A stretch of DNA of 40,699 nucleotides, from IMG/VR virus record IMGVR_UViG_647533158_000007, one strand, 5' to 3'. This document shows, piece by piece, positions 1,297-33,106 of the stretch (its first letter is position 1; every line of letters starts with the position of its first letter). Below the pieces are notes generated by a model that had not been told where the DNA came from, did no database searches, and saw only the letters and a program-made list of their open reading frames with translations. Origin of the DNA: a virus. Taxonomy: Duplodnaviria; Heunggongvirae; Uroviricota; Caudoviricetes. Position numbers and translations under genes: made by a program.

Positions 1297-3252
1297 ATGA
1301 GCTTTCTTTTGAAGACTGACAAAACATTGTCTAAAAATTACCAGCCAGGAGTTGATGGACTCCGTGCTGTTGCCGTCATTTTAGTTCTTATATTCCATGT
1401 AGGGTTCAGTAGTGTTCCAGGAGGGTTTGTTGGCGTTGATGTATTTTTTGTTATTTCTGGTTATCTGATAACTGGAATAATTTTTAATCAAACTGAGAAG
1501 GGAACTTTCAGTTACATTAATTTCATGTTAGCCAGGATAGCAAGACTGTACCCGGCTCTTATAGCAACGCTGATCGCCGTTTTTGCTGGATGCTTTATTC
1601 TGTACTCCCCTTCTGATTTTGTTAGCGTATCTAAATCAGCAATCTATGCTTTGTACTCAGCATCAAATATATTTTTTGCACAAAGCGTTGGTTATTTCGA
1701 TACATCATCAGAAATAAATCCATTGTTGCACACATGGTCTCTTGGTGTAGAACAGCAGTTCTATCTTGTATGGCCTCTGATTATCGGAGCAGCATATTTA
1801 GTAAAAAAGAGCCTTGTGCCATGGGTTCTGGTTATTATTAGTATTGCTTCTCTGGCATCCTCTCAGTGGGCAACTATAAACATGCAAACTGAAGCATACT
1901 ACTGGATGCCGTTCAGGGTTTTTGAGTTGTCTTTCGGCGGACTCGCATTCTTCATTTCTCGATGGATAAAACCATCTGAACTAACGAAGGAGTCTATGAT
2001 GGCTGCGGGACTTGCGATGATAGTATCATCTGCGTTGCTTTACTCATCATCAACTCAGTTCCCTGGTTTACATGCCATGATTCCCGTATTGGGTACCATG
2101 CTTTGCATTCTTTCACATGATGCAAAATACGCTGGATTCGCTGTGAATAACAGGGTCAGCGTTACGATCGGCCTGATATCTTATTCAGTTTATCTAATTC
2201 ACTGGCCTATTATTGTGTTTTACAAATACTGGATATATAGAGAGTTAAATGATATCGAGAAAGCATCATTGATTTTATCTTCGCTGGCTGTTGGATTCTT
2301 AATGTACAACGCAATAGAAAATAAATTCAGAAAGATAAAAATAAATGAGTTTTGCTACAAATCAGTATTGCTTTTATCATTAACTATATTGGTTATGATT
2401 TCGTATTCATCTTCAATAAAAGACAACGGATTTGCATTTAGAATACAAAATTATAAAGAAAACATGGAAATGCTCAAGCCTGGATTTAAAGAATATTTAT
2501 TCGGAGGCTTTGGGGTTAAGCAAGGTGAAATGGTAGTTCTTGGAGATAAAACCAAAAAGCCATCATTTGTTTTCATGGGTGACAGTTATGCAAGACAGTA
2601 TTCATTAGCCATGAGTGAATTTCTTGCAAAGAGAAATCTATCAGCAGCAGCATTCTTCGCTGATGGGGCATATCTATCAAATAGCGTTTACGTTACAGAA
2701 AAAGGGAAGGTTTCTGTATATGGTGTGAAGATAGGAACAAAAGCGATAGATTACTCTAAATATAATAAGATACCACTTGTTTATGCACAATCATGGCTTA
2801 GGTACATGGAGATGCTATCTGATAAAGATGGTAATGTGTATAAATTCAACGGAGACCATGATTATATGAAATTCAATGCTTCCGTTATTAACAATATTCA
2901 AGAGTACACAAATCAGAAAGTAATTGTTATTGGAAACCACCCGGCAGCAATAGGCTCTGACGGCGGTCTTTCTTGTGTGAGCCGACCTTCATATGTTGAA
3001 AAGAAATGCATTGATAGTATTTTCAGCACAGAAAGCGGTGATAGGTTAGATAGCAATAATTATTTAAACAAATGGCTATCAGATAACGGAAGTATAAAGT
3101 TTATAAACCCTTATGATTTCATGTGTAGGAATGGGAGATGTAACCTAGTATCTGACAAAGGTGACGTTATGTATTCTGATGAGTATCATCTATCAAGATA
3201 TGGAGCAAGAAAGGCAATTGAAGGGTTTGGAAATATAATTATCGATATATAA
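1297..3252 (+). CDS. O-antigen acyltransferase (acyltransferase-3 membrane domain + C-terminal SGNH-like domain), lysogenic conversion
   Basis: 651 aa; N-terminal GLRAVAVILVLIFH...GGFVGVDVFFVISGYLIT typical of AT3 family; multiple hydrophobic helices; markedly AT-rich; located between int and tailspike as in serotype-converting P22-like phages. Confidence 0.8.
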   Translation: MSFLLKTDKTLSKNYQPGVDGLRAVAVILVLIFHVGFSSVPGGFVGVDVFFVISGYLITGIIFNQTEKGTFSYINFMLARIARLYPALIATLIAVFAGCFILYSPSDFVSVSKSAIYALYSASNIFFAQSVGYFDTSSEINPLLHTWSLGVEQQFYLVWPLIIGAAYLVKKSLVPWVLVIISIASLASSQWATINMQTEAYYWMPFRVFELSFGGLAFFISRWIKPSELTKESMMAAGLAMIVSSALLYSSSTQFPGLHAMIPVLGTMLCILSHDAKYAGFAVNNRVSVTIGLISYSVYLIHWPIIVFYKYWIYRELNDIEKASLILSSLAVGFLMYNAIENKFRKIKINEFCYKSVLLLSLTILVMISYSSSIKDNGFAFRIQNYKENMEMLKPGFKEYLFGGFGVKQGEMVVLGDKTKKPSFVFMGDSYARQYSLAMSEFLAKRNLSAAAFFADGAYLSNSVYVTEKGKVSVYGVKIGTKAIDYSKYNKIPLVYAQSWLRYMEMLSDKDGNVYKFNGDHDYMKFNASVINNIQEYTNQKVIVIGNHPAAIGSDGGLSCVSRPSYVEKKCIDSIFSTESGDRLDSNNYLNKWLSDNGSIKFINPYDFMCRNGRCNLVSDKGDVMYSDEYHLSRYGARKAIEGFGNIIIDI

Positions 3253-3300: not shown

Positions 3301-5457
3301 TTACAGAGTTGGGAAGTTTGTTGATAATGGTACTATTGCATATTCAAGTTTTGTTGGCGGATTATTTGCAGCGCTGTATGTTGAAAGAGCCTCAAGCACA
3401 ATATACCCACTCCCGTTGTACCCTGCTTTGAAGCAACTTTGCAGGTTTGCTATGGATGTGTCTCCTGGATTTAACCGCTGATCAATGGGTGATTTAAGGT
3501 CAGTTGCATCTGCCCTGTCCGTTGCGTCATGCGCACCGGAAGACATGATATAAGTAGCATAATTATTTTTTACACCTCCAGTCACTTTTATGTGGAGAAG
3601 GTAAAGAGTGCGATCAGATGTAGAACCAGTCAATATCTGTTTATCAAGAGTAATTCGTACCTTTGAGCCATCAGATAACACAGGTAAAGACTTGCTTAAC
3701 ATTGCTACGCCATTAACAGTATTATCATAACCATTTCCGATATAGTTACCTGAACCTACAAAAGCTGAGTTCATTCGCCAGATATCTTCTGCCGTAAATA
3801 ACCCTGACGTAATGAAGTTACCTGTCCATACGTTTCTGTTTCTTTCTGGTCTTGCATTAAGCACCATTCCAACACCCCCGGCCATGAAGTTGCCAGATAT
3901 AACTGCTCCTGACATATCGGTAGTGTTGATGCATTGGAGTCTTAGGTCTTTGTTAACACCAGGATCAAGAACCATTTGCATGGTATTGCTGTTGATACTA
4001 ATTCCGGCACACCACGTGCCATTAAAACCGTTGTTATTGTTGTTTAACGCCTGTGAAGCGATGAAATTAAATATCCTCTGTTCTGAAGGATTTGTAGCAC
4101 CTTTATAGTAGAAAACATTTCCTGTAATACTAACAAGAGAAGTTCTAAGGAATATAGCGAAATCGTTAAGCGGGTTTTCCTCAAAATGATAGATATTGTT
4201 AGAAATAACTGAACGCCCACCAAGACCGACTCTAGTACTACCATCAAATTGCAATGACATCATTTTATTAGCTGTATTGACAAATCTGTTGGAAGTTATG
4301 TTTATTTCAAGCCCCCCAGTAAATGTATCCATCTCACACGCAGACTCAGCATTCCTGTTCATAAGTAAATTTCCAGAGAAAGCGCCTCCTATCGTCGATC
4401 CTCCGATTTTTATAATATCTGCATTCGGACCGGTCTGCATAAAAACATCAAAGGTGTTATTCGTTATGTGGAACATTGACTTGCGAGGAGTTCCAATGTC
4501 GACGGATGCAGTCGTGTTGCCAAGAATCATCAGATATGGATATACCTCACCCTGTTCACCTGACATTCCTGCATCAGAGATATACTGATCTGTGTTGTCA
4601 TCAGTCTTGCAGTAGTTATTATCAACTGAAATATGTACGCTTGTTGGGTCCTGACAGTTAACCATGATGTAGCCAACACCGCAGTTAAAGCATTGCATAT
4701 CTTTTATCACCACGCGCGTTGGTAAATTCGCCAGCCCATCAGGGTAATCATTGAAAATTACCTGAGGACGCTGGGTGTGGTATGCATTTGCGGTGAACTT
4801 ACCGCCGATAATCTCTACTGATTTTGCGCCAAGCGGATGGAAAATATAATCAATGCCATTGAAGGTAAATTCTCCAGTAGAAGCATCGATAATGATGTCT
4901 CCTGGGATGGTGACGGGGGCTGTTACATCGTACACACCTGATGCTACAACTCTCGTTTTGTTTGCAACCGCATAATTTACAGCTGCCTGTAATTTTTCTG
5001 ACGCATTACTTCCGGGGAATACCTCGGGGACAACCCATTTGATGGCATCCTGTACCGTGCCATATGGCATAATCCCAACAAGACCAGCGCCGTCTTGATT
5101 AGAAAGCCTAATCTCAAATTGATCAGGGTCGTACTTCAGCACATTAGGGAAATAGAACTGCTGTGATCCATATGCATCGTACACAGACATAGAATGACCT
5201 TGCACAGTTACAAACTTGGCAATCTGTCCGTTATATACCGGATATCCAGCAGCATTAATGATGATTGGTTGCGAAACAGGAACGTGAGAACCGTCTTCGT
5301 TCTCTATATAAACCTGAATCTGGTTTTCTGGATTTACCGGGTCAGTGTCAATTATTCCGATGTAAATTTTTCCATTAGCTACGGCTTTAAAAGAACGAGC
5401 CATAGTGAAGAGTTGCGAAGGCATCCCAATTACAACATTGGCTGTAATGTCTGTCAT
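3301..5457 (-). CDS. Tailspike protein (P22 gp9-like N-terminal head-binding domain, divergent receptor-binding domain)
   Basis: 718 aa; N-terminus MTDITANVVIGMPSQLFTMARSFKAVANGKIYIG...DTDPVNP...VYIENEDGSH closely resembles recalled P22 tailspike N-terminus; remainder does not resemble P22 endorhamnosidase domain. Confidence 0.88.
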   Translation of the reverse strand: MTDITANVVIGMPSQLFTMARSFKAVANGKIYIGIIDTDPVNPENQIQVYIENEDGSHVPVSQPIIINAAGYPVYNGQIAKFVTVQGHSMSVYDAYGSQQFYFPNVLKYDPDQFEIRLSNQDGAGLVGIMPYGTVQDAIKWVVPEVFPGSNASEKLQAAVNYAVANKTRVVASGVYDVTAPVTIPGDIIIDASTGEFTFNGIDYIFHPLGAKSVEIIGGKFTANAYHTQRPQVIFNDYPDGLANLPTRVVIKDMQCFNCGVGYIMVNCQDPTSVHISVDNNYCKTDDNTDQYISDAGMSGEQGEVYPYLMILGNTTASVDIGTPRKSMFHITNNTFDVFMQTGPNADIIKIGGSTIGGAFSGNLLMNRNAESACEMDTFTGGLEINITSNRFVNTANKMMSLQFDGSTRVGLGGRSVISNNIYHFEENPLNDFAIFLRTSLVSITGNVFYYKGATNPSEQRIFNFIASQALNNNNNGFNGTWCAGISINSNTMQMVLDPGVNKDLRLQCINTTDMSGAVISGNFMAGGVGMVLNARPERNRNVWTGNFITSGLFTAEDIWRMNSAFVGSGNYIGNGYDNTVNGVAMLSKSLPVLSDGSKVRITLDKQILTGSTSDRTLYLLHIKVTGGVKNNYATYIMSSGAHDATDRADATDLKSPIDQRLNPGDTSIANLQSCFKAGYNGSGYIVLEALSTYSAANNPPTKLEYAIVPLSTNFPTL

Positions 5458-17477: not shown

Positions 17478-18893
17478 TCAACCTACACCACAAGGAATTG
17501 AGTAACTGGAATAGTCGGGTTGCGCAGCCGACTCCGGGCAATGCATACACATCATCAGCGCATCAGCCAGGTTAGGAGATGGAATACCGAGCTTCTGCTT
17601 CATTTCGACCTTAGTCATAAGCTCCAGCTTCCCGTTGTTATTGAATTTGCGCTGAATCTGCGTCAGTTCTGCAAACAGCTTCTCCAGCATCTTCTCGCCT
17701 ATTGCTTCTTTGTCGAAACTCAGCATGTCGTCGGGGTCTGCATACTCACCGTGGACAACCGCCCGATATGTCAGATACAGCCTGTCAGCCAGCGCGTAAT
17801 AGAATTGCGCTCGCTTATTGCGGAATACATCGCCAATAGTACGAACGTTGTCACCCTGTACGACTTCATCAGCCCATGCTCCGGCCTGATACGGTGCATC
17901 TTCATCAAATGGCGATTCGCTTCCCTTGAACATCGTGGCGGTGATTTTCTTGCCGGAGAACGCTTCCGTTGTCTGTCTGCGTAGCCCTGCACCGACACCA
18001 TCACCATCCCACAGGTAGTGGTCAGCGCCGTCTTCAATCGCCAGAGAAGTAGCCCAGTCAGCACCCTCGTTGATGTCCATCAGCAGGCCTTCGGCAATGC
18101 GTTTAACTACCGAACCGTGGCGCGATGCATAACCTTTAGCATCCGGTCCTGTATCTGACGGGTCATGCGCAGAGACAACAGCGCCTTTCGCTTTCCATCC
18201 GAGTTTCTTGTGCGCATCGGTTGCGGCTTCAAGCCATTCACGTTTGATGATTGCCATATCACTTGCGCTTACTGGTTCACCAAGCCAGATGTGACGATAC
18301 AGTGTCGGATTTCTGCGTTTACACTCTTCCATCTCCAGACGGAGAACTTCAGGAAAGTGCGGGTTGTCGGTGTAGTTCACCGTCAGCAGACAAATATCAT
18401 CAGGAGGATTTACGACGAATCGCTGATAGGTATCGTCGAGGATGTTCTTCGGGTTAAAGCTCACCCATATTTCAGAGAACGGCTTACGGATGGTTGGTAT
18501 CAGGATATCCCATGATTCCTTCGTTACCGCCTCCGCTTCTTCCACCCAGCAGATATCAATACCTTCGAGCGATTTAATCTTTGTCGGGTTGTTTTTGATG
18601 CCGTAGAACATGAATTCGGCATTCGTTCCGAGATGACGAATCATGGAACGCTGAATTTCAAACTCAGCCGAATACCCTTCCCGCTCTATGGTGTCTTCAA
18701 GCAACCGGATTACCGAATCGCTGATACTGTTTTGCAGTTCACGAGCACAGAGGATGCGCACAGGCTGCCGACGCGCCGCTTCAACAAGCAGCCTCGCAAT
18801 TGCCCATGACTTACCGCTACCTCGACCGCCTTTGGCGACTTTGTAGCGATGCGCCTCAATGAACGGTTCAAAGATAGGATTAATCGAGGTCAT
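17478..18893 (-). CDS. Terminase large subunit
   Basis: 471 aa; N-terminal Walker A KGGRGSGKS; overlaps small terminase stop. Confidence 0.9.
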   Translation of the reverse strand: MTSINPIFEPFIEAHRYKVAKGGRGSGKSWAIARLLVEAARRQPVRILCARELQNSISDSVIRLLEDTIEREGYSAEFEIQRSMIRHLGTNAEFMFYGIKNNPTKIKSLEGIDICWVEEAEAVTKESWDILIPTIRKPFSEIWVSFNPKNILDDTYQRFVVNPPDDICLLTVNYTDNPHFPEVLRLEMEECKRRNPTLYRHIWLGEPVSASDMAIIKREWLEAATDAHKKLGWKAKGAVVSAHDPSDTGPDAKGYASRHGSVVKRIAEGLLMDINEGADWATSLAIEDGADHYLWDGDGVGAGLRRQTTEAFSGKKITATMFKGSESPFDEDAPYQAGAWADEVVQGDNVRTIGDVFRNKRAQFYYALADRLYLTYRAVVHGEYADPDDMLSFDKEAIGEKMLEKLFAELTQIQRKFNNNGKLELMTKVEMKQKLGIPSPNLADALMMCMHCPESAAQPDYSSYSIPCGVG

Positions 18894-19330
18894 TTTCCGA
18901 ACAGAGTGCTCATCGGTGATGTTTCAATCTGGATTGCGCCGCCGTCTTTGCCTGTTAGCTCGTGATCAACCTTGTCGCGCCATTTATCCTTCTGTCTGTT
19001 CTTAAGCCAGAAGATGGCAGCTGTTGTATCAGGCGGGTAATACTTCTCAAGCGGAGTTTCGACAATTCTATTTTCAATAACACGAATATCGATGTCTGGA
19101 GCCACGAAGCCCATAGCGCGTTGATAAAGACGGTCACTAACTTCTGCATCAGCGACGGCCTTACCCTTTTTTATGGACTCCGAAAACTTAGGATAATCAA
19201 GCTTCCACTTGTTAATAGTTGACTCACTGACTTCAAAGAAATCAGCAAGTTCTGCATCGGTGTAGCCCAGCAAGCACAGTTTGCGTGCCTGTTCGGCATA
19301 CGCCTCTTGATACTTTGTTGGGCGCGCCAT
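18890..19330 (-). CDS. Terminase small subunit
   Basis: 146 aa; C-terminal KDGGAIQIETSPMSTLFGK matches recalled Sf6-type small terminase C-terminus; N-terminal HTH-like region. Confidence 0.8.
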   Translation of the reverse strand: MARPTKYQEAYAEQARKLCLLGYTDAELADFFEVSESTINKWKLDYPKFSESIKKGKAVADAEVSDRLYQRAMGFVAPDIDIRVIENRIVETPLEKYYPPDTTAAIFWLKNRQKDKWRDKVDHELTGKDGGAIQIETSPMSTLFGK

Positions 19331-20266: not shown

Positions 20267-20734
20267 TCATCGAAGGCATTGCGTCCTGATGTATTCCTGA
20301 AGCGTTCTCAGTGCTGTTTGGTCGCGGATAATCCCGTCCCGGATATCGAGAACGTTTCGTCCAGCAACTGGAGAGAGTTCGACGGTGGCATCATTGCCCA
20401 TGCCGGAGGTGCGGGAGGTTTCGGTTGAGGCTGGTACTTGACACTTTCCTTTGACGAGCACCCTGCCACCATTATCAAGCTTGCGCCGAAGAGCATCATT
20501 TTCAGCTTTCGCATCAGCTAACTCCTTCGTGTATTTAGCATCGAGTGCATCAGCAGCACGCTGGCGCTGCTGCATGTCAGTAATGGTGGCAGTCGCCTGC
20601 TTCAGCTCACTGACTTTTTTATCGCGCTGGTCTTTGTAGGCGATGGCGTTATCACGGTAATGATTAACAGCCCATGACAGGCAGACGATGATGCAGATAA
20701 CCAGAGCGGAGATAATCGCGGTTACCCTGCTCAT
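20267..20734 (-). CDS. Rz: Spanin inner-membrane subunit (Rz)
   Basis: Likely start at Met5 (ATG 20734 overlapping endolysin stop as ATGA); [31 protein letters not shown] resembles recalled lambda Rz; N-terminal TM then coiled coil. Confidence 0.85.
20308..20514 (-). CDS. Rz1: Spanin outer-membrane lipoprotein subunit (Rz1), embedded in Rz in a different frame
   Basis: 68 aa; [21 protein letters not shown] lipobox with Cys; proline-rich [11 protein letters not shown]; entirely nested in Rz. Confidence 0.8.
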
Positions 20735-21234
20735 TGCTGCCCCCACAAACAGACTTCACGCTCAATATCACGACGGGTCATCAGCCCTTTCCATTGCTTA
20801 CCGCCAGCGTATGTCCAGCGACGTAGCTGGTCACATGCGCCTTTGATATCACCCTGGTTTATTTTGCGAAGAAGCGTCGATGTTCTGAAATTGCCAGCCC
20901 CCACGTTGTAGACGAACGAGTAAAGAGCGCCGCGCGTTGTTTCCGGTATATCGACTTTGATGTACGGGTTAATTTGTCTGGCGACCGTGGCAAGGTCTTT
21001 ATTCAGGAGAGCTTTGCATTCTGCTTCGGTATACGTTTTACCGAGCATGATGTCTTTTCCTGTATGCCCGTAACATACAGTCCATACACCAACTATGTCT
21101 TTGTAAGGATTATGTCTCACACCTTCCAGACCATCGTTACCACTTGGGCCAGTGATTAACACAGATGCTATAGCAATAGCCCCGCCACTTATCGCCGCTA
21201 TTACGCTATTTCGTAGTGCCGGTGACATTGCCAT
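20731..21234 (-). CDS. R: SAR endolysin (phage 21 R-like lysozyme)
   Basis: 167 aa; N-terminal Gly/Ala-rich weakly hydrophobic signal-arrest-release segment [27 protein letters not shown]; strong recalled similarity to P21 R. Confidence 0.88.
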
Positions 21235-27828: not shown

Positions 27829-28689
27829 TCACCTGTCGAAAAACACGTAGCCAGTTTTCGATACGGTGATTGCGGATGATGGTTTGGATTGTGGTTGAAT
27901 AGTTTCTGGCTTCTCGTCGTTCCAGCGTTGACCGTTCAGGTAGCTCGATGGTAACAACCTGTCGAATCCGAACTGCTTACCATTCCTGCATGCGATGTCT
28001 TCTGCCAGCATCGTGGCAAACTCGCTTGCCGTACCCCTGGTAGTTTTACGCCATTCCCTGAACTGTGTTCTGAATGCCGAAGCTGCGTTTTTCTTCCCGG
28101 CTTTCCGCATGCCTGCACACCAGAATATTTCCTCGAATGCCTTGTCGGTTTCTTCGTGACGGTCAGGTGATTTTTCACACTCCGTCCGAACACTTTCGGA
28201 CATAGTGTTTTTATTATTTCTTTTTTCTTTTGTAATAGTTTCTTTTGTGTGTCCCTGTTTTGGTGACAGCGCTGTCACCGTTTTGGTGACACTTTTTGTC
28301 ACCAATGTAGTGACATTATCACCAGAGTAGTGACACCCTTCTATTTTCCATTCTTCGATGTTCTTGTTAGGACCGATTTGCTGGCCTTCGCGAAGGATAA
28401 CCTTCATCGCGATAAGCTCATTCTTGGCCTTGTTTACCTTCTGTCTTGGCAGCCTGGTAATTTGAGCTAACTGACTATCAGAGATGCGATCCATCTTTTT
28501 ACCGTAGCCGTATGTTTTACGGCATATGGCGTGGGCAACCTTGCTCTGATTTTTCGTTAAATCTGCGCCGATAAGCTCTTCATACAGGGCATTTGCAAGA
28601 CGGGTATAACCATCTTCAACTTCTGCCACACGACGCTCCACAGGCCGTTGTGAAGGCCTTAAATGTGTTACGGTTGCAAGATTACTCAT
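27829..28689 (-). CDS. O: Replication initiator, lambda O-like N-terminal origin-binding domain
   Basis: 286 aa; N-terminal segment ([13 protein letters not shown]...[11 protein letters not shown]...[25 protein letters not shown]...GPNKNIEEW) parallels recalled lambda O; iterons lie inside the coding region and encode a repetitive VT-rich linker. Confidence 0.8.
28205..28340. repeat. Putative origin of replication: iterons plus adjacent AT-rich region inside the O-like gene
   Basis: Four spaced palindromic repeats of GTGACA..TGTCAC type (ggtgacagcgctgtcacc, ggtgacactttttgtcacc, gtagtgacattatcacc, gtagtgacaccc) next to a ~55-nt A/T-rich stretch. Confidence 0.6.
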
Positions 28690-28828
28690 GACCTTTCTCC
28701 TTCTGCATCAGCTTCACTTTTTCCAACTCAGCCCGGAATCGACCAGGCTGCTTGAAGCTGGACAGGAAGCGATCACGTAGTATGTGTTTGTGAATTTTGT
28801 CCTGGTAAGGACTGAGTTGTTTTGTCAT
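28682..28828 (-). CDS. Small hypothetical ORF between cII and O (below ORF-track cutoff)
   Basis: 48 aa by hand translation; AGGAG RBS; stop overlaps O start. Confidence 0.3.
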
Positions 28829-28860
28829 AATTACTCCTGTGGATTGATCCAGTAATGACC

Positions 28861-29157
28861 TCAGAATTCCATCTGGATTTGTTCAGAACGCTCGGTTGCC
28901 GCCGGGCGTTTTTTATTGGTGAGTCCATCAAGCGCATACTTAAAAGCCCTGCTAATCGGACTGATATCTGATGCCATTCCGAAAGCACACAAGACCGAGG
29001 CAATAAATCTCCAGTCCGTTCTGCTTATCTTCGATTCATGACAGCCAATCATCTTTGCCAGACCGCGCTGGGTAAGTGTTGACAGGTTGATGAGTAAATC
29101 TGTTTCTGCGCGATCAACGTCGCGCTGTGATAGTTTGCTGTAACTTGTTTGTTCCAT
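28861..29157 (-). CDS. cII: cII-like transcriptional activator (chimeric: divergent N-terminal region, lambda-like C-terminus)
   Basis: 98 aa; C-terminal [20 protein letters not shown] matches recalled lambda cII, N-terminal ~75 aa does not. Confidence 0.75.
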
Positions 29158-29221
29158 TTCTTACTATTTCCATATGTAAATAATCACTAATACTCATCTT
29201 TCGATGAGTTCTTAATTAGTT

Positions 29222-29256
29222 ACCGCGTTGTCGGCGGTGCAGATTGATAAAGAGCG
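29222..29256 (-). promoter_or_regulatory. nutR (boxA + P22-type boxB)
   Basis: Minus strand reads CGCTCTTTA (boxA) then ACCGCCGACAACGCGGT (hairpin matching recalled P22 nutR boxB) just downstream of cro. Confidence 0.6.
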
Positions 29257-29263
29257 GTGTTAC

Positions 29264-29473
<210 letters not shown>

Positions 29474-29488
29474 TTAGTACATGCAATC

Positions 29489-29553
29489 ATTATCACCGCT
29501 AGAGGTAAAATAGTCAACACGCACGGTGTTAGATATTTATCCCCTGCGGTGAT
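29489..29553. promoter_or_regulatory. Right operator OR1-OR2-OR3 with divergent pR / pRM (lambda immunity type)
   Basis: Three 17-bp half-palindromic operators tatcaccgctagaggta, caacacgcacggtgtta, tatcccctgcggtgata; pR -35 TTGACT and -10 GATAAT on minus strand with 17-bp spacing. Confidence 0.8.
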
Positions 29554-29561
29554 AGATTTAA

Positions 29562-30278
<717 letters not shown>

Positions 30279-30285
30279 CACGTAA

Positions 30286-30723
30286 ATGATTAAAGAACGT
30301 ATTTCTTATATCATTCCGATTGCGATGGATGAAGGCAACCACGTAACTCCAGTTCTTATCTATGAAATGGATAAAGACTCCCATGAAGTGGATCTGTCAT
30401 TTGGCGCGTTTTTTATCGGCCTTAAGGCTACAAAAAAATATTCCATAGGCATTGAGGTTTTCAATGCTCAAGAAATACCGATACCAATTGACACAAAACT
30501 GTACTCCAACCATAAGTTTTTTACGGTAGCAGAAGCCAACGATGGAGAAACCATCGTATCAACTTCTATGAGAATTAACTTCCCAAGGGTGAAAATTATC
30601 AAGCCTGGGATATTCGAAGTTAGAGCATCACTGGTTAATCCTGAGAAAGGCGAAGTAATTGATGTAAAAAGTTCGTTTTTTGACGTGAAGATAACAGGAT
30701 CAGTTCGCGATGAGTTTAGATAA
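30286..30723 (+). CDS. Hypothetical protein in rexA position (module gene 1), function unknown
   Basis: 145 aa; no recognisable motif; begins 8 nt after cI stop; AT-rich; 3' end overlaps next ORF by 14 nt. Confidence 0.6.
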   Translation: MIKERISYIIPIAMDEGNHVTPVLIYEMDKDSHEVDLSFGAFFIGLKATKKYSIGIEVFNAQEIPIPIDTKLYSNHKFFTVAEANDGETIVSTSMRINFPRVKIIKPGIFEVRASLVNPEKGEVIDVKSSFFDVKITGSVRDEFR

Positions 30724-31081
30724 CAAGGTTGCTCAGCTTCGTCCAAATCAAAACATATCTCGCCCAATTGGACACTATTCCACTGATGATGCATACTCAC
30801 GGCATGGTGGAGGAAACGGCGGAGGTAACATGCTTGAGGCTAGAGTTGCAAAGCTAGAGTCTGATGTTGAATACATCAAGCGCGATCTCGCTGAGGTAAA
30901 GTCAGATATAAAATCTGTTGATTCTCGTCTGTCAGGTATTGAGACAAGCATTAACTCAGCAAAAACCACCATTAAGGCATCTGCTGTCGTTGTCAGTTTC
31001 GTGTTCGCATTTTGCGCCTACATTTTTGGAAGTTATGTTTCCAAAATCCTTGATGCCTTAAACGGACTCGTTCTTAAGTAA
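30710..31081 (+). CDS. Hypothetical membrane-anchored coiled-coil protein in rexB position (module gene 2)
   Basis: 123 aa; Gly-rich linker HGGGNGGGN, heptad-like coiled coil LEARVAKLESDVEYIKRDLAEVKSDIKSVDSRLSGIE, single C-terminal TM helix ASAVVVSFVFAFCAYIFGSYV; terminator immediately downstream. Confidence 0.6.
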   Translation: MSLDNKVAQLRPNQNISRPIGHYSTDDAYSRHGGGNGGGNMLEARVAKLESDVEYIKRDLAEVKSDIKSVDSRLSGIETSINSAKTTIKASAVVVSFVFAFCAYIFGSYVSKILDALNGLVLK

Positions 31082-31088
31082 CACACAA

Positions 31089-31114
31089 CCCGGCCTCAGT
31101 GCCGGGTTTTCTTT
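31089..31114 (+). terminator. Intrinsic terminator ending the cI-module operon
   Basis: cccggc-cucagu-gccggg followed by UUUUCUUU, 8 nt after the stop codon. Confidence 0.65.
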
Positions 31115-31266
31115 GCCTCTCGATCCCCACACCTAATAACACCATAACCAATTGTATTTATTGAAAAATTGATAGATACAACTTGCTAAACAGTGCAATT
31201 CTGATCCCTCACCTACCAAACAATGCACCCTTGCAAAAAATAAATCCATATAAAAAACATACAGAT

Positions 31267-31335
31267 AACCATCTACGGTGATAAATTATCTCTGGCGGTG
31301 TTGACACACATACCACTAGCGGTGATACTAAACAC
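31267..31335 (+). promoter_or_regulatory. Left operators OL and promoter pL (lambda type)
   Basis: Operator-like repeats aaccatctacggtgata, tatctctggcggtgttg, taccactagcggtgata; -35 TTGACA (31301-31306), 17-bp spacer, -10 GATACT (31324-31329). Confidence 0.75.
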
Positions 31336-31375
31336 ATCAGCAGGAAGCTGGAAGCCAAACGGAACAGATTGGCAG

Positions 31376-31409
31376 GCTCTTTAACTTCGATGGGGCGCTG
31401 ACAAAGCGC
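31376..31409 (+). promoter_or_regulatory. nutL (boxA-like + P22-type boxB)
   Basis: GCTCTTTAA followed by hairpin GCGCTGACAAAGCGC, matching recalled P22 boxB-left. Confidence 0.65.
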
Positions 31410-31528
31410 AAACAGATACCAAACGAGATGGGTTTGGCGGTGATGTGAATTGCAGCTGCAACGACAGCAACCAGAAGATCAGCACCTGGCGCATCACCAC
31501 CAAAGCCATTTCACATGAGGAAAATATC

Positions 31529-31837
31529 ATGACGGTAATCGTGTACGGAAAATCAACATTTGCAGGAAATGCCAAAACTCGCCGTCATGAGCGGCGCAGA
31601 AAGCTGGCTATCGAGCGTGATGCTATATGCAACATCATCGATTCGATCTTCGGCACAGACAGTGAGGAACCTGTTCAGGAAGCCCCGAGAAAGCGTTTAA
31701 GCATTTCTGAAAAAGCAATATCACTCGGCATCATTAGCAAATCAAATACAGATGCGAATAGCGGAAGCGTTTGTTTGCCTGAAGTTGCACTGTATGCTGC
31801 TGGTTACAGAAGGCAAAAACTAATTACAGCGAGGTAA
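31529..31837 (+). CDS. N: Antiterminator N (P22 gp24-type)
   Basis: 102 aa from ATG with GAGGA RBS; MTVIVYGKSTFAGNAKTRRHERRRKLAIERD... arginine-rich N-terminal motif resembling recalled P22 gp24. Confidence 0.85.
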   Translation: MTVIVYGKSTFAGNAKTRRHERRRKLAIERDAICNIIDSIFGTDSEEPVQEAPRKRLSISEKAISLGIISKSNTDANSGSVCLPEVALYAAGYRRQKLITAR

Positions 31838-31839
31838 AA

Positions 31840-32118
31840 ATGAAGCCTAGCATAACAATCAAGCCAGCGAGAGATAATAGCAGGAACCGCCGCAGAGAGG
31901 CCAGGAAGGCAGAAAGAGCAGAGAAGGAAAACAAGAGCCGGGAGGAGAGAAAGGCAGAGATTTTGGAAAAAGGAGGATTGGCTGCCGTGAGGGGTGAAAA
32001 AGCAGCTGAATTAGCAGTAGCTCACGAAAAGACAGAGATTGACAATAATTCTGGTGGAGATGCAATGTTTAAAGTTGTCAATCACGCCCATCAACGAAAC
32101 CCCAAAAAGAAATGGTAA
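31840..32118 (+). CDS. Hypothetical highly basic Lys/Arg/Glu-rich protein downstream of N
   Basis: 92 aa; ATG 2 nt after N stop; followed immediately by an intrinsic terminator. Confidence 0.4.
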   Translation: MKPSITIKPARDNSRNRRREARKAERAEKENKSREERKAEILEKGGLAAVRGEKAAELAVAHEKTEIDNNSGGDAMFKVVNHAHQRNPKKKW

Positions 32119-32121
32119 TCA

Positions 32122-32145
32122 CCCCGTCCAAGACGGGTTTTTTAT
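32122..32145 (+). terminator. tL1-like intrinsic terminator
   Basis: cccguc-caa-gacggg followed by UUUUUU. Confidence 0.65.
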
Positions 32146-32175
32146 TGCAAGCAAACCACTTATTTGAGATGAGAT

Positions 32176-32541
32176 ATGAAAGAACAAGCAAACAAGATTC
32201 TCGTAGAACTACTGCAAAAAGCCAGTAATGGAATAGACGCGGCTGTTTCATTTAACCAGGCACAGATTCCTGATGTCATCCATCAGCTTTTGATGTGGCA
32301 CGCCGTATCATCAGCTGGAATTCAGGCTATCTGTGTATTGGTGATTATAGCGTGTGTTTATCTGATGATTTTTGCATGGAATAAAGGAGATGATGCAGAT
32401 ATTGTTCTTTTATCACTACTTGTCACATCAGGAATAGAGATTACTTCTATTGTTGTTTTCTTCAATTATTTCGACTGGCTGAAAATTTGGCTTGCTCCAA
32501 AACTTTACCTTATCGAATATGCAGCATTATTGGTTAAGTAA
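32176..32541 (+). CDS. Hypothetical small inner-membrane protein (two predicted TM helices) in the early-left operon
   Basis: 121 aa; hydrophobic segments IQAICVLVIIACVYLMIFAW and IVLLSLLVTSGIEITSIVVFF; sits where lambdoid phages often carry exclusion genes. Confidence 0.45.
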   Translation: MKEQANKILVELLQKASNGIDAAVSFNQAQIPDVIHQLLMWHAVSSAGIQAICVLVIIACVYLMIFAWNKGDDADIVLLSLLVTSGIEITSIVVFFNYFDWLKIWLAPKLYLIEYAALLVK

Positions 32542-32780
32542 TTTCAGGCCGCATAGTTGGCCTTTATTTTTAGCATAAACAACAGAATAAACACTGCACT
32601 GTGTATTCATTCCAACGAGTGAATACACGGAGCAATGTCGCTCGTAACTAAACAGGAGTCGACTTGTTCTGATTGTTGGAAATCTTCTTTGCCCTCCAGT
32701 GTGAGGGCCTTTTTATATGCATACCAATAACGCTTCACTCGAGGCGTTTTCGTTATGCAATCAAACAGAAGGAGCATCCT

Positions 32781-32951
32781 ATGCAACAGTTCGCTATTGC
32801 AGGGGCGGCATCGGTTCGCCCTTTCAACCCGATTTTATCGGTACAGCATTCACGAAAAAATATTTTAACCGGAGCAGACTTTAAACAACCAAGAATGAAA
32901 AGTTTGCTCGAAAAGCTTTGGGATATTTTGAAACAACAAGGCCGTCCATGA
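32781..32951 (+). CDS. cIII: cIII-like protein (FtsH inhibitor)
   Basis: 56 aa from ATG with AAGGAG RBS; MQQFAIAG... N-terminus and ...LWDILKQQGRP C-terminus resemble recalled lambda cIII. Confidence 0.6.
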   Translation: MQQFAIAGAASVRPFNPILSVQHSRKNILTGADFKQPRMKSLLEKLWDILKQQGRP

Positions 32952-33106
32952 GTTTTACAGATAACTGGTCAGACGAAGAATTCATTCGTCAGATGAAAGA
33001 TTTAATCGGTAACGAAGGAGATATTCATGTCACTTGCAACCACAGTGAAGGAGAGCAAGTTACAGAGACGCATGTACACGCAGAAAGCTCTCTGGTATCG
33101 CCATAA
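32948..33106 (+). CDS. Small acidic hypothetical protein (kil position)
   Basis: 52 aa from ATG overlapping cIII stop (ATGA). Confidence 0.3.
   Translation: MSFTDNWSDEEFIRQMKDLIGNEGDIHVTCNHSEGEQVTETHVHAESSLVSP

Follow-up and report, generated by a model that had tools for sequence, protein, structure and literature searches.

In phage lambda the interval between the repressor gene cI and the OL operators holds rexA-rexB, and the question arises of what has taken that place, and to what effect, when a prophage with lambda immunity carries something else there. Such a case is found in IMG/VR record IMGVR_UViG_647533158_000007, a stretch of 40,699 nucleotides from a tailed virus of the Caudoviricetes that was analysed as a whole and is called the window here. 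Between cI and the leftward promoter pL it encodes two small proteins, named gene 1 and gene 2 after their order behind the repressor. The analysis indicates that this pair has taken the place of rexA-rexB, that it accompanies prophage repressors of many families, that its parts have been exchanged in a regular manner, and that it is a candidate system for phage exclusion or abortive infection.

The immunity region had been described as lambda-type in the original prediction, which was made from the DNA letters and a list of open reading frames (ORFs), and alignment bears this out: the cro-cI DNA is 92.6% identical to phage lambda and the OL/pL region 93%, with the same operator spacing as in the lambda annotation, and cI matches Peptidase_S24 (E 5e-28) and HTH_3 (E 4e-11) of Pfam. 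The lambda homology breaks off at the end of cI and restarts from the base after rexB, running on through the terminator Timm, OL3-OL2-OL1 and pL (93%), so that the assignment to the rexA/rexB position was correct. Because the homology is bounded by the cI end and Timm, the pair is an exact replacement of rexA-rexB, and by this comparison the lambda genes have been replaced in the window and have not diverged. The two overlapping ORFs were found at the coordinates predicted for them, with gene 1 starting at the eighth nucleotide after cI (7 nt lie between the cI stop and the gene 1 ATG), an overlap of 14 nt between the genes, and an AGGA motif 10 nt upstream of the gene 2 ATG. The clean intrinsic terminator that had been noticed behind them begins 5 nt past the gene 2 stop, has a folding free energy (dG) of -15 kcal/mol with z = -3.5 against shuffled sequences, and aligns to lambda Timm; the homologous site carries the Timm annotation in EF120459 and EF120460. 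Co-orientation, gap, overlap and terminator all agree with the proposal that the pair extends the cI operon. Since the gap and the overlap leave no room for a promoter and Timm stands at the end, any repressor transcript of the lysogen, which in lambda starts from pRM, should read both genes.

Both ORFs are real genes under purifying selection. Homologues exist for each, and the ratio of nonsynonymous to synonymous substitution rates (dN/dS) is 0.10–0.21 for gene 1 against its Salmonella and Enterobacter copies, and for gene 2 is 0.04–0.15 over the C-terminal 80 codons and 0.18–0.46 over the N-terminal 44. A 110-aa ORF on the minus strand (30468–30800) and other overlapping ORFs, antisense or chance, were set aside because conservation and low dN/dS belong to the plus-strand frames. 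The description of the pair as AT-rich was upheld only mildly, gene 1 having 38–39% GC, gene 2 43–44% and cI itself 41–46%.

The slot had also been called a known hotspot for prophage cargo, which agrees with the variety found there: lambda-immunity phages carry rexAB, hicAB or other cargo between cI and OL. The post-repressor site has been described as a mosaic hotspot, which is also the home of BstA in the Salmonella prophage BTP1 (PMC8585504). Among phages and prophages with this lambda-type cI, the slot was seen to hold a 120-aa plus 42-aa pair without family match in E. coli CAU16175 (L026 2297–2802), hicA-hicB with an additional ORF in mEp234 (L042 1252–2382), and a 301-aa ORF in CL707 (L041 2643–3548). 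Labels of the form L026 denote the loci compared in this analysis.

Table 1. Coordinates of the gene pair, of the segments of the gene 2 protein and of other features in the window.
Feature	Position	Strand	Description
Gene 1, 145 aa	30286–30723	+	Predicted soluble, stand-alone Ig-like beta-sandwich; A-type partner of gene 2
Gene 2, 123 aa	30710–31081	+	Predicted tail-anchored coiled-coil membrane protein; ORF call; phrog_6136
Gene 2 N-terminal peptide, residues 1–32	30710–30805	+	Disordered, pLDDT < 50; co-varies with partner; proposed docking peptide
Gene 2 Gly-rich linker GGGNGGGN, residues 33–40	30806–30829	+	Junction of module exchange; N- and C-terminal parts recombine on either side
Gene 2 coiled coil, residues 41–89	30830–30976	+	Seven heptads; core RVAKLESDVEYIKRD
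Gene 2 transmembrane helix (about 90–110) and 13-residue C-terminal tail SKILDALNGLVLK, residues 90–123	30977–31078	+	
Intrinsic terminator, lambda Timm homologue	31087–31108	+	8-bp stem, 6 G-C pairs, T-run; scan; feature drawn to 31116
cI repressor, 237 aa	29565–30278	+	Lambda immunity type; first gene of the lysogen operon
cro	29264–29464	-	Divergent from cI; ORF call
pR-like promoter	29517–29489		Promoter scan, TTGACT-17-GATAAT
OL3-OL2-OL1 and pL	31267–31329	+	-35 at 31301, -10 ending 31329; promoter scan, TTGACA-17-GATACT
N antiterminator	31523–31837	+	PF25694 N_peptide, E 2e-38; opens the pL operon and marks the right-hand limit of the cargo slot
O-antigen acetylase	1297–3252	+	phrog_6705 'moron'; adjoins tailspike gene
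Tailspike	3301–5457	-	
Terminase	17478–19330		
Rz and endolysin (lysis cassette)	20267–21234		10 kb from the gene pair
Q	21844–22467		

Gene 1 was expected to have no recognisable motif, and Pfam, NCBIfam and PADLOC were all empty for it; PHROGs gives a family of unknown function only, and a sequence-profile search of the PDB returned nothing. Its AlphaFold2 (AF2) model, built with an alignment, is all-beta with eight strands (predicted local distance difference test, pLDDT, 86.6; predicted template modelling score, pTM, 0.81) and has strong structural matches to sandwiches of the immunoglobulin-like (Ig-like) or carbohydrate-binding module (CBM) type. The best viral matches are uncharacterised phage proteins of 134–142 aa, and PDB entries 6i56 and 6i5o (XepA/YomS, of PBSX and SPbeta) were not among the structural matches retrieved. 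The protein has no hydrophobic segment (the maximum of Kyte-Doolittle hydropathy over 19 residues is 0.77), no transmembrane (TM) helix and no signal peptide, and for want of a hydrophobic segment or signal peptide it is taken as cytoplasmic. Across distant homologues only I6, P11, P22, F43, Y52 and G108 are invariant, a pattern that looks structural and not catalytic, and the lack of catalytic-looking invariant residues suits a binding module. A profile of gene 1 run against 1.84 billion representative proteins found 19 matches only and no informative domain fusions: about a dozen of the matched proteins stand alone at 130–150 aa, and the long ones are Ig-repeat giants. To call gene 1 the sensor is a guess.

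For gene 2, the Gly-rich linker, heptad coiled coil and single C-terminal TM helix of the original prediction are confirmed by AF2, hydropathy and reading of the sequence taken together. In the model residues 1–39 are disordered and residues 40–122 form a single continuous helix; hydrophobic residues at 42, 46, 49, 53 and so on to 88, as read from the sequence, make up seven unbroken heptads leading into the TM helix, and the Kyte-Doolittle maximum over 19 residues is 2.1, at residues 92–110. G37 and G38 of the linker are conserved at 87–97%. The core RVAKLESDVEYIKRD of the coiled coil is highly conserved by column conservation, which is partly imposed, since the search pattern for homologues lies in that core; its use as a sign of a conserved host target was dropped as biased by how the homologues were found, and in the gene 2 variants of epsilon34 and L027 the core is not obligatory. 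The TM helix and tail are 65–87% identical between loci having unrelated partners, and their strong conservation (dN/dS as given above for the C-terminal codons) suggests a specific membrane function and not a passive anchor. As it has no signal sequence, the protein is taken to be tail-anchored, its coiled coil lying on the cytoplasmic side. In the PDB the closest sequences belong to generic coiled coils, among them those of Lpp and P22 gp26, which are trimeric. Scans of Pfam, NCBIfam, PHROGs and PADLOC gave a PHROG of unknown function and sub-threshold coiled-coil matches only. Against XhlA (PF10779) gene 2 reaches E 2e-4 and 21.9 bits, below the gathering threshold of 34.7, and its relatives reach 16.8–20.2 bits; some homologues bear the NCBI name 'hemolysin XhlA'. 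Of the likeness to XhlA that had been suggested, the order of coiled coil and C-terminal TM helix stands and the family match does not. Taken together, the profile and structure searches proposed as a check yielded an Ig-like fold for gene 1 and no confident family for either protein.

The context of the pair was established by a search for gene 2 relatives that took no account of adjacent genes, a repressor not being a search criterion. Around six gene 2 homologues, shown in 11 places in Enterobacter, Salmonella, Yersinia and Klebsiella, every locus reads repressor, then a partner of 106–156 aa, then gene 2; an opposite-strand cro-like gene comes first, the partner has no Pfam match, and the early-left operon follows gene 2. 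By scanning one genome per species, 23 gene 2 loci were obtained, and in the better-matching ones examined (Serratia, Symbiopectobacterium, Kluyvera, Phaseolibacter, Entomohabitans, Vibrio, Shewanella, Pseudoalteromonas, Thorsellia and a metagenome-assembled genome of the Cellvibrionaceae) gene 2 again lies behind a small partner ORF, mostly itself behind a repressor. In a Pseudomonas locus (L012) the ORF ahead of gene 2 resembles neither type of partner, and in an Entomohabitans locus (L021) the upstream neighbour is of antirepressor type; several weak matches from other phyla lack this context and may be unrelated coiled coils. The scan of IMG/VR gave 80 loci with 49 distinct gene 2 loci, an upstream partner ORF being present in 48 of the 49. 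These 48 pairs comprise 40 with an A-type beta-sandwich partner, 7 with a B-type zinc-ribbon partner and 1 unclassified. Among the ORFs upstream of the partner (n = 45) HTH_3 was found in 33, Peptidase_S24 in 18 and Phage_CI_repr in 15, and further repressor classes ahead of the pair are HTH-only Rac-type, Mu-type HTH with S24, IrrE/M78 and Arc; at least six unrelated classes precede the pair, with either partner. In the reverse look-up, a gene-2-type ORF followed the gene 1 homologue in 3 of 3 cases. Gene 2 relatives almost always follow a small partner gene. By this repeated order the pair forms an obligate unit with one invariable neighbour, a prophage repressor of whatever family, and the locus-conservation survey suggested earlier has accordingly placed the pair directly behind prophage repressors in many gamma-proteobacterial prophages.

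Several observations were made along these loci. The B-type partner is an uncharacterised zinc-ribbon family (CxxC...CxxCG) of about 100 aa, which replaces the beta-sandwich upstream of gene 2 homologues in prophages of Klebsiella, Vibrio, Shewanella, Pseudoalteromonas and Thorsellia (L039 3681–4001, L005 5639–5971, L008, L009, L014, L017 and L019). Directly past gene 2 and before the early-left operon, four loci carry an opposite-strand gene of 67–69 aa (L031 4541–4744; L034 4383–4589; L037 4417–4626, DUF2767; L039 4408–4611; all on the minus strand), of which the window has no counterpart. In a metagenome locus (L123 3435–3847) the gene 2 homologue is split into ORFs of 41 and 99 aa, while the near-identical L124 (3398–3847) is intact at 149 aa; the split may be either a frameshift or a sequencing error.

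Homologues of the pair are spread across the Enterobacterales, with 20 cluster-level homologues of gene 1 at 44–98% identity in Escherichia, Salmonella, Edwardsiella and Dryocola, and 74 of gene 2. Out of 5,426 complete genomes of E. coli, 14 carry the same pair at 96–99% DNA identity, one of them being the reference strain E2348/69 of enteropathogenic E. coli (EPEC; E2348C_RS13570/RS13575). Salmonella phage epsilon34 encodes the pair as gp45 and gp44, at 73% and 44% protein identity, behind a different repressor (gp46) and ahead of OL/pL. Among 50,697 phage records gene 1 was found only in epsilon34, g341c and NM-3, and relatives of gene 2 also in three Enterobacter phages.

The organisation of the pair became apparent when the partner, the N-terminus of gene 2 and its C-terminal part were compared separately over 23 pairs. 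In all 10 comparisons with partners at least 47% identical, gene 2 showed 44–97% identity over its initial ~32 residues and 25–40% beyond the linker. Conversely, C-terminal parts at least 65% identical occur with unrelated partners and N-termini. Close gene 1 homologues are accompanied by five coiled-coil/TM modules (the window, epsilon34, L027, L031 and L038 types), and the window-type C-terminal module (65–87%) is found on unrelated N-terminal peptides with distant beta-sandwich partners in L028, L034, L037, L024 and L002, and with a zinc-ribbon partner in the Klebsiella locus L039. On sequence grounds this three-part modularity and the linkage to the repressor are solid and unexpectedly regular. 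On the simplest reading the partner would dock on the N-terminal peptide, the glycine run would serve as a joint, and the coiled coil with its TM helix would be an exchangeable membrane module. As a separate observation, E. coli EPSSH018 (L027 2511–2834) carries the E2348/69 copy of gene 1 and a gene 2 that keeps the N-terminal 39 residues only; past residue 39 there is a different coiled-coil/TM module, which looks like a recent swap at the Gly linker within E. coli.

On the best reading of these findings the pair is a good candidate for a lysogen-expressed, two-part module for phage exclusion or abortive infection, carried as cargo of the repressor operon, and we regard this proposal as evenly poised. 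Its context makes it more plausible, as the pair stands behind repressors of so many unrelated classes, lambda-immunity phages keep rexAB, hicAB or other cargo at the site, the shuffling of modules is sensor/effector-like, and a separate lysis cassette lies 10 kb off. In the mechanism envisaged, the repressor transcript would carry gene 1 and gene 2 in the lysogen and end at Timm. The gene 2 protein, probably oligomeric, would be held in the inner membrane by the TM helix at its C-terminus, while its long parallel coiled coil and flexible N-terminal peptide would extend into the cytoplasm, where the beta-sandwich of gene 1 would bind that peptide and either hold gene 2 inactive or serve as the sensor. 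Upon superinfection, a phage-derived signal or the loss of the gene 1 protein would free gene 2, which could then depolarise the membrane in a RexB-like or holin-like manner (abortive infection) or block DNA entry at the inner membrane (exclusion); a collapse of membrane integrity has been proposed for RexB and for proteins of the XhlA type. The sensor or inhibitor would be interchangeable, beta-sandwich or zinc-ribbon, each with its own docking peptide, and the coiled-coil/TM part would come in at least five kinds. More tentatively, and with the balance slightly against it, the pair may be the founding case of an unrecognised class of repressor-operon defence, widespread among gamma-proteobacterial prophages and built from a soluble sensor, a docking peptide and a tail-anchored module that kills or blocks.

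Several points weigh against this proposal. The DNA coding for the N-terminal peptide adjoins or overlaps the partner gene, and linkage together with breakpoints at the Gly linker could give the same pattern without any contact between the proteins. The module is rare, as its frequency in E. coli and its presence in three named Salmonella phages indicate. In PADLOC-DB 2.0.0 (2023; later systems lie outside it) gene 1 has zero matches and gene 2 sub-threshold coiled-coil matches of E at least 0.015, and gene 2 taken with its variants gave coiled-coil noise only, with E at least 5e-4. A literature search found no publication on these proteins, the screen of Brenes & Laub 2025 lying outside its coverage. 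Expression in the lysogen is inferred from gene order, the function is inferred for every member of the group, and other functions of a lysogen, such as envelope change, control of induction or addiction, fit the location equally well.

Among these other functions, a role in lysogeny itself fares best, though it appears unlikely. The pair could modulate repressor stability, induction or the choice between lysis and lysogeny, as Hex does, or could act on the envelope or physiology of the host, in the way of the lysogenic-conversion proteins Bor and Lom of lambda. A tight linkage to the repressor could indeed mean a job connected with it, and a precedent exists in the Hex protein of phage 434, which is encoded on the repressor mRNA and blocks RecA-mediated cleavage of the repressor (PMC3564112). 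However, the repressors that accompany the pair are of unrelated kinds, and the HTH-only, IrrE/M78 and Arc types have no S24 autocleavage domain, so that a direct role in S24 cleavage is unlikely; interchangeable partner and membrane modules are also easier to reconcile with an arms race than with a housekeeping regulator.

It is decidedly unlikely that the pair is primarily an addiction system resembling a toxin-antitoxin (TA) pair, in which gene 2 would be a small membrane toxin and the gene 1 protein its antidote, with no primary role against phages; the pair would stabilise the prophage or kill cells that lose expression of the repressor operon. The layout of a small upstream gene overlapping the gene of a downstream membrane protein is TA-like, the N-terminal peptide of gene 2 is inherited together with the partner, and the hicAB pair in the same slot of mEp234 is a TA system. 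Yet gene 1 is all-beta and Ig-like, with no DNA-binding fold or autoregulatory feature, the pair relies on the repressor promoter and has none of its own, and neither Pfam nor NCBIfam yields a TA family match. The idea also overlaps with the exclusion or abortive-infection proposal, many TA pairs acting as abortive-infection systems.

Very improbable is a lysis accessory acting after induction, with gene 2 as an XhlA-type holin-like protein and gene 1 as an XepA-like beta-sandwich after the model of xepA-xhlA-xhlB-xlyA in PBSX, where xepA lies directly upstream of xhlA: the weak XhlA match, the NCBI homologue name and the shared architecture speak for it, but that match is sub-threshold, XepA/YomS is missing from the structures retrieved for gene 1, gene 2 lies in the immunity region far from the endolysin/Rz genes of the window, and in all loci examined it follows the repressor. 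The precedent itself is a lysis system of PBSX that comprises both XepA, a beta-sandwich protein, and XhlA, the latter being essential for lysis (PMC6834076).

The remainder of the window is, by gene content, a P22-like prophage. The O-antigen acetylase beside the tailspike is likely a serotype-converting function of such a prophage. N is of the phage-21 type going by its Arg-rich motif, although the immunity region is that of lambda. Directly after N, a 92-aa ORF (31840–32118, plus strand) matches the PHROG 'Nun-like transcription termination factor' at E 1.5e-29; it has an Arg-rich N-terminus and the C-terminal end VVNHAHQRNPKKKW, which resembles the C-terminus of HK022 Nun, and a terminator stands behind it (32123–32137). 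This ORF may be a second exclusion function, directed against other lambdoid phages. A further ORF of 121 aa (32176–32541, plus strand; AT-rich at 37% GC; phrog_3054, of unknown function) has hydrophobic stretches that suggest a membrane protein. It lies between terminator-like hairpins at 32123–32137 and 32546–32563 and has the look of a moron cassette of its own within the early-left operon. The Rfam scan of positions 28500–33000 gave zero matches.

The pair is of interest for the slot that it fills. The space between cI and pL is classically that of RexAB, the mechanism of which is still debated after 60 years, and a much smaller, modular pair in the same slot could provide a simpler model of a cytoplasmic sensor controlling a membrane effector. 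Its carriers include the EPEC strain E2348/69, the Salmonella phages epsilon34 and g341c, and prophages from Klebsiella, Enterobacter, Yersinia, Serratia, Vibrio and Shewanella; should it exclude phages, it would bear on host range in phage therapy and on competition between prophages. The co-variation of partner and docking peptide offers a cheap and direct experimental handle. If the pair is not a defence system, it still represents a function in want of explanation, one co-expressed with the repressor in prophages of many immunity types.

Among known systems, the pair resembles RexAB of lambda, with which it shares the slot from the cI end to Timm, the orientation of cI, the terminator, and a two-gene layout on the repressor transcript in which the soluble protein precedes the membrane protein. 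Homology is absent, with no Rex family match in Pfam, NCBIfam or PADLOC, and the dimensions differ: 1.3 kb in lambda, with a RexA of 279 aa and a polytopic RexB, against 0.8 kb here, with a 145-aa beta-sandwich and a single-pass, tail-anchored coiled coil. By sequence and layout, the pair is best described as RexAB-like in position and organisation and not as a member of the RexAB family. XhlA of Bacillus PBSX resembles gene 2 in its small size and in the order of coiled coil and C-terminal TM helix, and it shares one lysis system with a beta-sandwich protein, XepA (PMC6834076). By analogy a membrane-damaging role for gene 2 is plausible; gene 2 differs in its additional N-terminal peptide and Gly linker, in the sub-threshold score and in its location in the immunity region. 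Another family at the margin is CCDC90-like/DUF1640 (PF07798), coiled-coil tail-anchored proteins for which the literature gave no bacterial or phage function. Its threshold is exceeded by L005, a distant relative of gene 2 from a Pseudoalteromonas prophage (43.6 against 33.5 bits), and the annotation 'CCDC90 family protein' is borne by one gene of E. coli at this site, whereas gene 2 of the window has no match.

BstA, from the Salmonella prophage BTP1, is an abortive-infection protein whose gene comes immediately after the repressor gene in a variety of Gram-negative prophages; lysogens express it strongly, and its action is reported to take place where phage DNA is replicated (PMC8585504). 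It shares the post-repressor position with the pair and differs as a single protein from two small ones, one of them membrane-anchored; neither Pfam nor PADLOC linked gene 1 or gene 2 to it, no direct sequence comparison with BstA having been made. In mycobacteriophage Sbash, gp30 and gp31 reportedly form a two-gene defence beside the immunity repressor, with one membrane component, and similar two-gene prophage defences lie next to repressors elsewhere; their hosts and protein families are unrelated to those of the pair. Against this background, what the sequences indicate to be new is the synteny of gene 2, partner and repressor, together with an N-terminal peptide that tracks the partner and a C-terminal part that has been swapped independently of it.

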